NCBI RefSeq assembly: GCF_988243305.1
Contig: NZ_OZ547136.1
Length of the DNA: 64,000 bases
Direction: 5' to 3' (one strand)
Shown here: positions 22,816 through 49,773 of the stretch, in pieces
Position numbering within the stretch: position 1 is the stretch's first letter
Layout: each line of letters opens with the position of its first letter
Notes under the pieces: generated by a model
The model's database searches: none
Told to the model about the DNA's origin: nothing
Seen by the model: only the letters and a program-made list of their open reading frames with translations
Translations under genes and position numbers: made by a program

Positions 22816-23559
22816 TTATAGCAGTGCCAGCAGGAAGACCAGTTCACCAGGCTCTATAGCAGCTCCCAGCGTATCGCCGGTTTGCCCGCCCAGCGTACGT
22901 TTGAGAAGCTGACCGAGGATGAAAATCGCCACCATCGTCACCACCATAGCAGCCACACCATGCATACCCGGCAATAATACGGCAGCAAAAATAGCGGCTA
23001 AGCCGAGTGTGACGCAGGTTTGTCGCCCATCAATTTTGCCAATGAACACATTGCCAAGCCCTTCTTCCCGGGCATAACGATGACGATACATCAATAATGC
23101 GGCAGTCCCGCGGCTGACCGCACATGCTGCCGCCAGCGATGCAAGGATCGGTTCGCCACGCAGAGCCAACTCGCTTAATACCAGAATCTTTGCCAGTACA
23201 ACAAAAATCAATGCCAGACCGCCATGGGTGCCTAAACGGCTATCACGCATGATTTCCAACATGCGATCGCGGCTACGTGCAGAAAATACGCCATCACAGG
23301 TATCGGCGAGGCCGTCCAGATGGAATCCCCCGGTCATCAGCGCCAGCACAAGTACGCTAAACAGTGCCGCCAGTGGTACGCCACACCATGCCTGCAGCAC
23401 CATGAAGACCAGCCCGCTAATCGCGCCAAGCAATAATCCAATTAAAGGAAAAGTAATAATACCGCGAGAATAATGCTCGAAATCCAGTCCCTGGGACCAG
23501 CGACGCGGTACAGGCAGACGCGTAATAAATGAGAGCATCGCCCAAAATAATTTACTCAT
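22816..23559 (-). CDS. cobS: Cobalamin 5'-phosphate synthase CobS (247 aa)
   Basis: ATG at MSKLFWAML overlaps cobU stop (ATGA); polytopic membrane protein. Confidence 0.85.
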
Positions 23560-24101
23560 TTGATTTTTACTCCAATACCCGAAACCACCAGCCATACTTC
23601 ATTTGCCGCAGCGGCCAGCTGCTGATTTACCCGCCCGGCAATATCACGAAAATGTCGTGCCAGACGACTCTCCGGCACAATCCCCATTCCCACTTCGTTA
23701 GTCACTAATACAACCTTTGCGGGGCAACGTTGGCAGGCAGCAATCAACGACTGAATCTCAGCATTAATCGCCTGTTCCATCGCCTGATAATCCCATTCAT
23801 CAGGGTCTTTATCGCCGCCATAATCAAACAACAGATTAGTCACCATTGTGGTAACGCATTCCAGCAACACAGCTTCATGCGGGTTAATGTCTGCATGAAT
23901 TAATTCATCAAGATGTTGCCAACGCTCCACCGTGCGCCAGTGCGCCGGACGGCCTTGCCGATGATGTTCTATCCGTGCAGCCATCTCGTCATCAAGGATT
24001 TGCGAGGTAGCGATATACAGAACCTGTGAAGAGTCCCCAATAAGCGCCTCTGCGTGGCGACTCTTCCCGCTCCGTGCGCCCCCCGTCACCAAAATCATCA
24101 T
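23556..24101 (-). CDS. cobU: Adenosylcobinamide kinase/guanylyltransferase CobU (181 aa)
   Basis: P-loop GGARSGKS; 181 aa. Confidence 0.9.
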
Positions 24102-25307
24102 ACCGACTCCTGATTCAAATGTATGATGGTATTCATTGAACAGAACAATGGATCCCCCACCGTTGCTGACCGCAAAACATTTACGCGATTAATACTGCGC
24201 GTAATATAATTAAAAATCCAGCATTCTCAATCCATTACGAAATAAGATGGCATTACGGAATAGCCAGACTTTCTCGTGTTAACGTCCGACAAAATGCGTC
24301 ATTGACAGCGGTTTCTGTGGATTGACACATTTCATTCAGATAATGAATTAATGCTACTGCCGGACCAACCAGCAAACGGGCATTGTGTTCTGAAATCCAG
24401 GCTATTGATTCAACGTCAGCGACAGATCTGCGCTGTAAAAGAACTTGTAAAACAACGCAATAGAATTATCCGGAATGGTGGCGACTATGCACTAGAACAC
24501 CACAATTTCGCTCTCTCGGTAAGGCACTGTCACAGCATTCAACAGAATGTGACTTGCCAGATTTATTAGCGCCACCAGATGTTTAACCGGGTAACCACGA
24601 CCCAGTCGGGGATATATTCCATCTTCTCGCTGACATCATCAAGAATAAAAAGGTTTATCACACTCAGAGCAACGTTCTTCAGCAGGCGGGATAATTCTTC
24701 AACATTTAGAAGATGTGTTATTAAAGGCATACAAACTGGACGTATTGTATTTTCTTTTGGTGGTTGACCTAAGGTAGCAGTTTATCCTGATGCGCTGAGA
24801 TTTCTGTAATATCTACGTCAACATTCTCCTCGAATAGAAAATGCAGCCCCGGCAAGTGATTCACATTTTTTAACAAAACGTTGTTAGCGTGCCATTTTCA
24901 GAAGCTCTCCAAGAAAGCGAATTCTTTTCTCAAATTCTGCATTCTCAGACACAGCTTTCTACTCCATGGCAATGGCCCAAATACGAAGTTGCTCAGGATC
25001 ATTAGTGGTGCTGAGAAGTTAAATAACCATGCGGAGTACCACTCGTCATCACGTATTTATATATCATGAAGCTATTGTTGTGTTTTGTACATCAGTAGAT
25101 ATATTCTGATATACTCCTTTTGCTAGACATAACCTTTCACCTGCTTGCAAAGCTTCTGTGTTCTGACATTGCCAAATTGTTGCAATTCTGTATCCAGCCT
25201 TCTTTCAGTCATAGCTTCGGGCCGCGATAAGACTCACTGATCTGACCCTGATTCCTCTTGCAGACTTTATAGACCATTTAAAATGCAGTTTCGGTAATGA
25301 CTCCAAC

Positions 25308-25811
25308 TTATTGATAGTGTTTTATGTTCAGATAATGCCCGATGACTTTGTCATGCAGCTCCACCGATTTTGAGAACGACAGCGACTTCCGTCCCAGCCG
25401 TGCCAGGTGCTGCCTCAGATTCAGGTTATGCCGCTCAATTCGCTGCGTATATCGCTTGCTGATTACGTGCAGCTTTCCCTTCAGGCGGGATTCATACAGC
25501 GGCCAGCCATCCGTCATCCATATCACCACGTCAAAGGGTGACAGCAGGCTCATAAGACGCCCCAGCGTCGCCATAGTGCGTTCACCGAATACGTGCGCAA
25601 CAACCGTCTTCCGGAGACTGTCATACGCGTAAAACAGCCAGCGCTGGCGCGATTTAGCCCCGACATAGCCCCACTGTTCGTCCATTTCCGCGCAGACGAT
25701 GACGTCACTGCCCGGCTGTATGCGCGAGGTTACCGACTGCGGCCTGAGTTTTTTAAGTGACGTAAAATCGTGTTGAGGCCAACGCCCATAATGCGGGCAG
25801 TTACCCGGCAT
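25308..25811 (-). CDS. insB: IS1 InsB (made as InsAB' by -1 frameshift)
   Basis: 167-aa IS1 transposase frame overlapping insA 3' end. Confidence 0.85.
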
Positions 25812-26005
25812 CCAACGCCATTCATGGCCATATCAATGATTTTCTGGTGCGTACCGGGTTGAGAAGCGGTGTAAGTGAACTGCAGTTGCCATGTTTTACG
25901 GCAGTGAGAGCAGAGATAGCGCTGATGTCCGGCGGTGCTTTTGCCGTTACGCACCACCCCGTCAGTAGCTGAACAGGAGGGACAGCTGATAGAAACAGAA
26001 GCCAC
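25730..26005 (-). CDS. insA: IS1 InsA (91 aa)
   Basis: [42 protein letters not shown]. Confidence 0.9.
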
Positions 26006-26577
26006 TGGAGCACCTCAAAAACACCATCATACACTAAATCAGTAAGTTGGCAGCATCACCTGCAGTTTCTGCAGGTCAACGTCTGACCATCATTGTCATC
26101 ACTCTGGCCATTAGAGTAACCTTCTGCATTCATCCTTTTGTAAAAAGTTTATATCAGTATCAGCAATTAACCGGACCTGATACTGATATGAGTCTTACCG
26201 CATATACGGTTAATTTCAGCAATTAATTACATTATCCACGCCAAAGTATTTGTCATCACAATGATGGTACCTTCTTTCAGACACCATTTTTTCAACTCCG
26301 TTTTCCACGGACCGCACTCTTATGTCAAGAGTGCGGTCCGTGGATACAACCAGAGACCGACTGACACGAGTCAGAGGAAACGACGGATATGTTCAGTCGT
26401 AAAATATCTATCAAAAAACATGATTAAGGTCAAAAATGTTTGATATTTACAATTTATGAAGATGACAATAATTATAGACACATGAGAACATAAATGAAAA
26501 TAATTATCATTACAGCAATCTGAATCGCCACGGGTTTAACAGACACCTCAGAGTCATTTAAGATGGCTTAAAGAGAG

Positions 26578-26871
26578 GTGCCCATGAGCGGTAAGCGTTA
26601 TCCCGAAGAGTTTAAAACTGAAGCAGTCAAACAGGTTGTTGATCGCGGTTATTCTGTTGCCAGCGTTGCAACACGTCTCGATATCACCACCCACAGCCTT
26701 TATGCCTGGATAAAGAAGTACGGTCCGGATTCTTCCACTAATAAAGAACAGTCAGATGCTCAGGCCGAGATCCGCCGTCTCCAGAAAGAGCTGAAACGGG
26801 TTACCGACGAACGGGACATATTAAAAAAAGCCGCGCTCTTGATGTCAGACTCCCTGAACAGTTCTCGATAA
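26578..26871 (+). CDS. IS3-family transposase OrfA (HTH)
   Basis: [32 protein letters not shown]...; probable ATG at 26584. Confidence 0.8.
26824..26830 (+). promoter_or_regulatory. Programmed -1 ribosomal frameshift heptamer A-AAA-AAG (orfA to orfB)
   Basis: ATTAAAAAAAGCCGCGCTC at the orfA/orfB overlap, as in IS911. Confidence 0.55.
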
Positions 26872-26897
26872 TCGGGAAACTCAGGGCGCGTTATCCT

Positions 26898-27258
26898 GTG
26901 GCCACTCTCTGCCATGTGTTCGGGGTCCATCGCAGCAGCTACAAATACTGGAAAAACCGTCCTGAAAAGCCAGACGGCAGACGGGCTGTATTACGCAGCC
27001 AGGTACTTGAACTACATGGCATCAGCCACGGCTCTGCCGGAGCAAGAAGCATCGCCACAATGGCAACCCAGAGAGACTACCAGATGGGGCGCTGGCTTGC
27101 TGGCAGACTCATGAAAGAGCTGGGGCTGGTCAGCTGTCAGCAGCCGACTTACCGGTATAAACGTGGTGGTCATGAACATGTTGCTATCCCTAACTACCTT
27201 GAACGGCAGTTCGCCGTGACCGAGCCAAATCAGGTGTGGTGCGGTGATGTGACCTATA
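26898..27258 (+). pseudogene. IS3-family transposase OrfB, 5' exon (interrupted by intron)
   Basis: ...[27 protein letters not shown] then frame diverges into intron. Confidence 0.7.
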
Positions 27259-29986
<2,728 letters not shown>

Positions 29987-49316: not shown

Positions 49317-49673
49317 ATGGCAGGAGTTCGTCAACACGGTTGGAGGGCCATTCCGGCAGTATGCTCAGAATATGGCGCAGATACGCTTCCGGATCGATAC
49401 CGTTCAGACGGCAGGTGCCTGCTTTTCTGGCAACAAGCAGGAATCTCAGCGCTGAAGCAGGAATTAGAGGTAAAAACGCCCTACCGGGCCATGAATCACC
49501 CGGTCATTGGAGTAGTAACCAAAGCAGATTTAGCCAGCATGGAACAAATATCTTTGGTGAAAAGTTGGTTACGGGAAGCTGGAGCGCACAACGTGTTAGT
49601 AACCAGTGCAGTTAATAACAATGGAGTTACAGAACTTTTTGCCTTGCTGCATACAGAAGAAGGCTGTTGTTAA
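49317..49673 (+). pseudogene. yoeF: EutP/PduV-family GTPase C-terminal fragment (yoeF-like remnant)
   Basis: ...VIGVVTKADLASMEQISLVKSWLREAGAHNVLVTSAVNNNGVTELFALL with no P-loop N-terminus. Confidence 0.5.
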
Positions 49674-49773
49674 TTTCGATTGGTTCTCGGATGAGAATGA
49701 TGACGGTGATACACAGATAAGAATCAATGAGCAATGAGGGTTGCCGGGCAACCCTCATTGAATAAAACGGGAA

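Follow-up and report, generated by a model that had tools for sequence, protein, structure and literature searches.

Dead gene fragments and a probable cobUST promoter between cobU and IS1 at the left end of a CP4-44-type island

The 1.2 kb between cobU and an IS1 element at positions 24102-25292 of the window, by which we mean the whole 64,000-nucleotide stretch of DNA analyzed here, is very probably a stack of dead gene fragments that holds one element still likely to be live. Relics of cbiG and, probably, of cbiP lie next to cobU and are followed by IS debris. Apart from one probable promoter, the segment consists of unremarkable pseudogene and IS remains; it is widely shared, vertically inherited and already annotated for the most part. 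It is bounded exactly by the start codon of cobU, which ends at 24101, and by the IS1 end at 25293, and the debris actually reaches ~26520, beyond IS1. The homologies, junction positions, population frequencies and IS1 duplication reported here were observed directly. The features of the region are listed below.

23556-24101, minus strand: cobU, intact, encoding a 181-aa adenosylcobinamide kinase/guanylyltransferase, first gene of cobUST (ORF and RefSeq annotation of identical DNA)
24102-24336, minus strand: probable decayed 3' end of cbiP, ~last 79 codons, now the upstream region and putative 5' UTR of cobU (colinear nucleotide alignment)
24230-24203, minus strand: sigma-70 promoter-like site TTGAGA-16-TATATT facing cobU (10/12 in a consensus scan)
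24337-24397, minus strand: truncated cbiG fragment, ~CbiG aa 100-119 (translation matches the C-terminal third of a 144-145-aa Escherichia ORF)
24392-24398, no strand: border at which near-universal DNA gives way to the island, with an ambiguity of 5 bp (pairwise alignment with island-free H7, L005)
24405-24593, minus strand: part of the interior of an IS4-family transposase (aa 166-228 out of 445), interrupted by one stop codon (K-12 yeeH and the tail of yoeG)
24587-25148, minus strand: IS66-family remnant, comprising TnpC aa 1-151 (24587-25030) and the tnpB-tnpC spacer with ~the last 27 tnpB codons (25031-25148)
25144-25292, continuing at 26070-26186, minus strand: DNA belonging with the IS110-family remnant past IS1 (IS1-spliced homology)
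25284-25292 and 26061-26069, no strand: target-site duplication of IS1, 9 bp, TGCAGTTTC, in perfect copies
25293-26060, minus strand: IS1, 768 bp, insA/insB, with the terminal repeat GGTAATGACTCCAACTTA at 25293 (terminal repeats, duplication and ORFs)
26176-26337, minus strand: C-terminal 54 codons of an IS110-family transposase (K-12 yoeH; tblastn E 2e-9), with its 3' flank at 26072-26175
49491-49673, plus strand: distal island flank, the last 60 codons of pduV (K-12 yoeF region) and then tmaR (homology to L005 resumes)

The first-pass annotation had seen no convincing ORF or RNA gene in the segment, and this was confirmed. The longest ORFs within 24102-25292 are 72, 62, 62 and 54 aa, ARAGORN found no tRNA, and Rfam searches of the segment and of its IS1-free homologue (E≤1) returned no credible family but only noise (mir-5444, snoR60). 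Pfam searches in six frames of the IS1-spliced segment matched no family; the IS fragments were missed as well, making this a weak test when taken alone. When the individual fragments were searched, PduV was the sole family matched. The gene-free stretch measures ~1.2 kb, or 1.65 kb with IS1 removed, which is long for E. coli, and its cause is pseudogene debris and not chance. The G+C content falls from ~0.50 in cobU to 0.38-0.45 in the segment. The same annotation had described this DNA as unassigned, which proved incorrect: RefSeq marks two pseudogenes in it, a 'cobalamin biosynthesis protein' at 24253-24396 and an 'IS4 family transposase' at 24405-24593, and K-12 names pieces of it yeeH and yoeG. 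A 54-aa 'hypothetical protein' at 24566-24730 is also called in some RefSeq records. With the features listed above, the whole segment is assigned except for 7 bp (24398-24404).

The distribution of this DNA was examined among 5426 complete E. coli genomes, with 80-bp probes used for the junction counts. At least part of the segment was matched in 5403 genomes and at least 80% of it in 3078; the shortest matches sampled, from 128 bp, all begin at the cobU end. The junction seen in the window is present in 4026 genomes. Another 842 are contiguous through the border point, and pocR-side DNA, the ancestral pdu+ state, is retained in 645 of these. The first-pass annotation had named conserved core intergenic sequence as the finding that would count against its own reading, and by these numbers the description applies to the first 296 bp and largely to the rest.

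The core part of the segment (24102-24397) probably consists of two joined relics. In nucleotide alignments, the ~235 bp before cobU run colinear with the 3' end of cbiP, the gene for cobyric acid synthase, as found in Citrobacter youngae, Salmonella diarizonae and Klebsiella michiganensis. Among the blocks conserved are TTACGCGCAGTAT, which corresponds to HYAQY of CbiP, TACCATCAT, and the RBS and start of cobU, and the spacing to the cobU ATG has been kept. The cbiP gene of Citrobacter overlaps the start of cobU. The cbiP tail in the window has two in-frame stops in its old frame. When tblastn was conducted with CbiP aa 428/458-474/478, weak matches were obtained in Escherichia relatives (E 0.001-0.01 in a very small search space), and the window's own copy gave no match at E≤0.1.

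The adjoining piece derives from cbiG, the gene for cobalt-precorrin-5A hydrolase. A protein search with the longer ORF of island-free strains found the 144-145-aa 'cobalamin biosynthesis protein' in Escherichia only. This ORF is CbiG 1-119, as tblastn with Citrobacter youngae CbiG gave E values of 3e-24 to 4e-21. NCBIfam NF004463 matched the 145-aa ORF over positions 1-126 of 351 (E 1.7e-21) with 76.8 bits, short of a full-length match and below the curated cut-off of 546. The 47-aa piece in the window matched nothing when searched alone. The RefSeq pseudogene at 24253-24396 continues from the cbiG piece out of frame into the cbiP tail. Its identification as the C-terminus of CbiP was considered and ruled out by the NCBIfam and tblastn results, which give CbiG 1-119 followed by cbiP-tail sequence read in another frame. 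In E. albertii, E. marmotae, E. whittamii and pdu+ E. coli, the 144-145-aa ORF lies between pocR plus a cobalamin riboswitch and cobU, with pduF/pduA on the other side. For E. albertii and E. marmotae the riboswitch (RF00174) reaches 105-113 bits, and pdu+ E. coli has it as an annotated feature; an Rfam search did not find this aptamer in the window. The core part serves solely as the upstream region of cobU.

The first-pass annotation had suggested that the segment may hold the proximal end of an accessory island and had placed the border of that island at IS1. Alignment with island-free E. coli, the check it had proposed, upheld the former and located the boundary elsewhere. Homology to H7 (L005) stops at 24392-24397, which puts the border 296 bp from cobU, and starts again at 49491. 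The island between these points (24398-49490) is ~25.1 kb long and of the CP4-44 type, with genes for an AlpA-like regulator, YfjI, a YeeP-type GTPase, Ag43, YeeS/T, CbeA/CbtA and YeeW. The window lacks 280 bp of the empty site (L005 8306-8585), namely what else survives of the truncated cbiG' together with the beginning of a pduV remnant; the L005 copy of this remnant matches Pfam PduV-EutP at E 1.2e-26. The junction is a deletion or illegitimate-recombination scar, because it lies internally in both of the fragments that it connects, cbiG and IS4-family transposase, and because 280 bp present at the empty site have been lost.

A second island-free form, exemplified by R1 and ET650, joins 24289 to 49500 and occurs in at most 401 genomes, a figure that is an upper bound only because joined two-piece hits contaminate it. 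We considered this junction as a secondary deletion of the island and rejected the idea, since SNPs in the flanks group it with the H7/pdu+ haplotype and away from the island-bearing one. On the left flank, island-free haplotypes show 5-7 differences from the window in 188 bases, and on the right they differ by 7%. Either the island replaced an H7-like scar or it was trimmed independently from a pdu+ ancestor. When the relic flanks (24102-24397 and 49500-49700) were compared with the island-free haplotype (L004, L005, L011), identities were ~92% for cbiG' and 93% for pduV', compared to ~98% for the nearby cob genes. This divergence fits neutral decay since an old split, or the arrival of the flanks with the island by recombination.

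On the island side, the debris comes from three IS families. The IS4-family fragment was identified by tblastn (E 6e-24, 73% identity over 63 aa), which also found it in 184 plasmid records. With 63 of 445 codons the copy is incomplete, and as an internal piece it can have no element ends. The IS66-family remnant shows 71% nucleotide identity over 570-577 bp to plasmid-borne IS66-family elements in blastn. Its TnpC portion (aa 1-151) matched in tblastn with E 3e-24 and 47% amino acid identity and contains stops and frameshifts; TnpC 152-511, tnpA and most of tnpB were not found in the remnant by tblastn. K-12 yoeG begins at the TnpC Met (25030), and the 54-aa 'hypothetical protein' is one open frame of the broken TnpC. 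With IS1 spliced out, the DNA from 25144 to 26186 matches plasmids of Shigella and E. coli straight through the IS1 site, with 72-74% identity over ~270 bp, and plasmid fragments are the only matches to 25144-25292 alone. Judged by these matches, this piece would be either the long 3' non-coding end of an IS110-family element or the conserved or habitual target of one. The IS110-family remnant has 78% identity to an intact IS110-family element in blastn. A bridge-RNA-like element in its 3' end was considered and dropped: no Rfam family matched, and the copy is truncated and split by IS1. All three IS fragments are truncated within genes, short of any element end. The joints cbiG'/IS4' and IS4'/IS66' must be deletion or illegitimate-recombination scars. 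The island part of the segment, 24398-25292, has no function of its own.

Two further observations were made in the debris past IS1. The first is a perfect inverted repeat at 26304-26344, with 18-nt arms and a 5-nt loop (TCCACGGACCGCACTCTT / AAGAGTGCGGTCCGTGGA), exactly at the truncation of the IS110-family transposase. Transposase coding sequence forms one arm and an inverted copy of it forms the other. The repeat is also conserved in K-12 and resembles the scar of a snap-back or hairpin rearrangement. Farther along, an IS3-family element at ~26521-27260 (orfA 26578-26871; ISEc52-like by RefSeq naming in OW1E2) interrupts the DNA just upstream of the position that the TonB-dependent receptor pseudogene yoeA has in K-12 and CFSAN004176.

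The IS1 element is a recent simple insertion private to the window lineage and not the island border. This follows from its 9-bp target-site duplication, from the contiguous flanks of IS1-free strains and from its absence at this junction in all 5426 complete E. coli genomes. In IS1-free OW1E2, CFSAN004176 and K-12 (L001-L003), the flanks are joined with a single copy of the 9 bp, and the same DNA runs on to 26520. Six probe hits with at least 80% coverage were discounted in the count as 88%-identity chance extensions at other loci. The segment does end exactly where IS1 begins, as would be expected if IS1 marked the island border and 24102-25292 were ordinary core intergenic DNA. We give that explanation next to no credence: the target duplication is perfect, identical DNA continues past IS1 at 26061-26520, no other complete genome has IS1 at the site, and island-free genomes lose homology at 24397 and not at 25292. 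The first-pass annotation had itself guessed at a former att site or an integrase remnant, with the segment as the decayed proximal end of the island. The border does fall inside the segment, and the island is of the CP4-44 type by gene content, a type whose relatives normally start with a P4-type integrase beside a tRNA gene. The guess found no support in the translated search proposed with it, in which three frames compared with a P4-type integrase pseudogene (from L004) gave nothing better than a 13-aa match (E 0.99). Six-frame Pfam searches, which are insensitive on broken frames, returned no integrase family, and the segment lacks a tRNA. Moreover, all but 7 bp of it belong to other elements, the junction lies within cbiG and IS4-family transposase fragments away from any element end, and the shortfall of 280 bp at the empty site means that the insertion was not clean. 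A comparison by eye saw no direct repeat common to both island borders. We regard an att or integrase origin as highly improbable.

The view that the whole segment is a conserved regulatory leader of cobUST, such as a riboswitch or attenuator, or that it hides an sRNA or small protein, is very unlikely, though several observations speak for it. Nearly all genomes retain the first 296 bp, IS1-mediated truncations still leave at least 128 bp of them, and the ancestral arrangement had a cobalamin riboswitch upstream. In addition, the 54-aa protein is called in some RefSeq records, and a K-12 list includes RNA polymerase binding sites before yoeG and yoeH (PMC3946193). However, Rfam matched nothing in the window or in its IS1-free homologue, and the riboswitch sat in DNA that has been deleted from the window lineage. 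The 54-aa ORF is a single frame of the broken IS66-family TnpC. DNA past 24397 is missing in about a quarter of genomes and is interrupted variously by IS5, IS1 and others, with cobUST kept. We favor a stack of dead fragments with one live element, a candidate promoter, in its core part.

This promoter-like site is identical across the island-bearing, H7-type, R1-type and pdu+ E. coli haplotypes, and no such consensus occurs at the corresponding place in the intact cbiP genes of Citrobacter, Salmonella and Klebsiella. The promoter scan found 2 sites against a mean of 3.5 in shuffles, and the scan alone says little. The same motif was reported as the constitutive promoter of cobUST, in the cobU/insH-6 spacer of K-12, by in-vitro genomic SELEX with RpoD holoenzyme (Shimada et al., PMC3946193). 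Since the riboswitch-controlled promoter is deleted in the window lineage, the sigma-70 site within the decayed cbiP tail most likely drives cobUST now; from its position, transcription is predicted to start at ~24196 with a 5' UTR of ~95 nt. More tentatively, and in our view somewhat less likely than not, the promoter that serves cobUST in island-bearing E. coli, where the riboswitch-controlled one is lost, may have been born by sequence decay inside the dead cbiP tail, and the AT-rich IS debris upstream might modulate it. If true, this would be a case of promoter birth from pseudogene DNA that rescued a salvage operon. Lawrence and Roth reportedly described several promoters for E. coli cobUST in 1995. 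Separately, strains 129130 (L012 4001-4200) and SLDY13 (L013 4001-4150) have independent IS1 copies 140 and 128 bp upstream of cobU, respectively, with the adjoining DNA deleted; in SLDY13 the putative promoter has thereby lost base 1 of its -35 hexamer.

We propose the following history, in which the order of events and the use of the promoter in vivo are what we infer. The ancestor of Escherichia would have carried a cbi-cob operon of the kind found in Citrobacter or Salmonella. A single ancient internal deletion may then have fused codon ~119 of cbiG to codon ~428 of cbiP out of frame, which would have left pocR, the B12 riboswitch, cbiG'::cbiP' and cobUST beside the pdu operon. Some 12% of complete E. 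coli genomes keep the pocR-riboswitch-cbiG'::cbiP'-cobUST arrangement, as do E. albertii, E. marmotae and E. whittamii. The window lineage lacks everything from codon ~100 of cbiG' to the middle of pduV and has the 25-kb CP4-44-type island (24398-49490) in its place. The left end of the island is made up of IS4-family, IS66-family and IS110-family-associated debris, split later by the recent IS1. With the riboswitch-controlled promoter deleted, the sigma-70 site in the cbiP tail would have taken over cobUST.

Comparison with known systems places each part of the region. The left end of the cryptic prophage CP4-44 in K-12, with yeeH, yoeG and yoeH, is the same DNA at 98.6-99.8% identity; on the window, yeeH maps to ~24406-24492, yoeG to ~24498-25030 and yoeH to ~26176-26334. 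K-12 differs in having an IS5 at 24492-24495 and no IS1. The K-12 record gives no product names for these three genes, whereas they are fragments of IS4-, IS66- and IS110-family transposases here, and it draws the CP4-44 border ~40 bp inside what the empty-site comparison gives as cbiG' DNA. Our literature search on yeeH, yoeG and yoeH found no description beyond their use as landmarks. As in the cbiA-cbiP-cobUST operons of Salmonella, Citrobacter and Klebsiella with their divergent pocR-pduF-pdu, DNA resembling the 3' end of cbiP precedes cobU in the window, and a pduV remnant remains ahead of tmaR at the distal end of the island. Relative to those operons, the window retains ~79 decayed codons of cbiP and ~20 of cbiG, and the riboswitch, pocR and the pdu operon are absent. 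The IS66-family remnant keeps the order of tnpA-tnpB-tnpC elements, with a tnpB tail leading to the start of tnpC, but unlike mobile members of the family it is truncated on both sides, carries stops and frameshifts and has no ends. The cargo of the island is of the same type as in integrase- and tRNA-linked islands of the P4 type such as CP4-57 and CP4-6 (AlpA-like regulator, YfjI, YeeP GTPase, Ag43, YeeS/T, CbeA/CbtA). Unlike those islands, however, the border in the window has a deletion scar in place of an integrase, a tRNA and att repeats.

This analysis adds the exact left border of a CP4-44-type island at 24392-24397 and not at IS1, the family identities of K-12 yeeH, yoeG and yoeH (IS4, IS66 and IS110), and the recognition of the upstream region of cobU as the probable relic of a cbiG::cbiP deletion. 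This relic is molecular evidence that genes for de novo B12 synthesis were once present in Escherichia and then lost. The 54-aa RefSeq 'hypothetical protein' is a warning for annotation, as it is a frame of a broken transposase. Beyond tidier annotation, the importance of the segment is small.

A last observation concerns the longer form of the cbiG relic outside the window. The cbiG' ORF is still open, at 144-145 aa, in five pdu+ Escherichia lineages, where it lies directly 3' of the cobalamin riboswitch (L014 8001-8435, L017 8001-8435, L019 9443-9877, L021 9432-9866 and L099 5194-5631). The probability of the frame remaining open under random change was 3-16% per lineage. Its dN/dS ratio was 0.32-0.43 in four bootstrapped pairs, with intervals that exclude 1, and 0.30-0.64 over ten pairs, while that of cobU was 0.10-0.18. 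From these sequence comparisons, the cbiG' ORF may have remained translated or under selection, whether it acts as a small protein or serves as a coupling ORF for cobUST.
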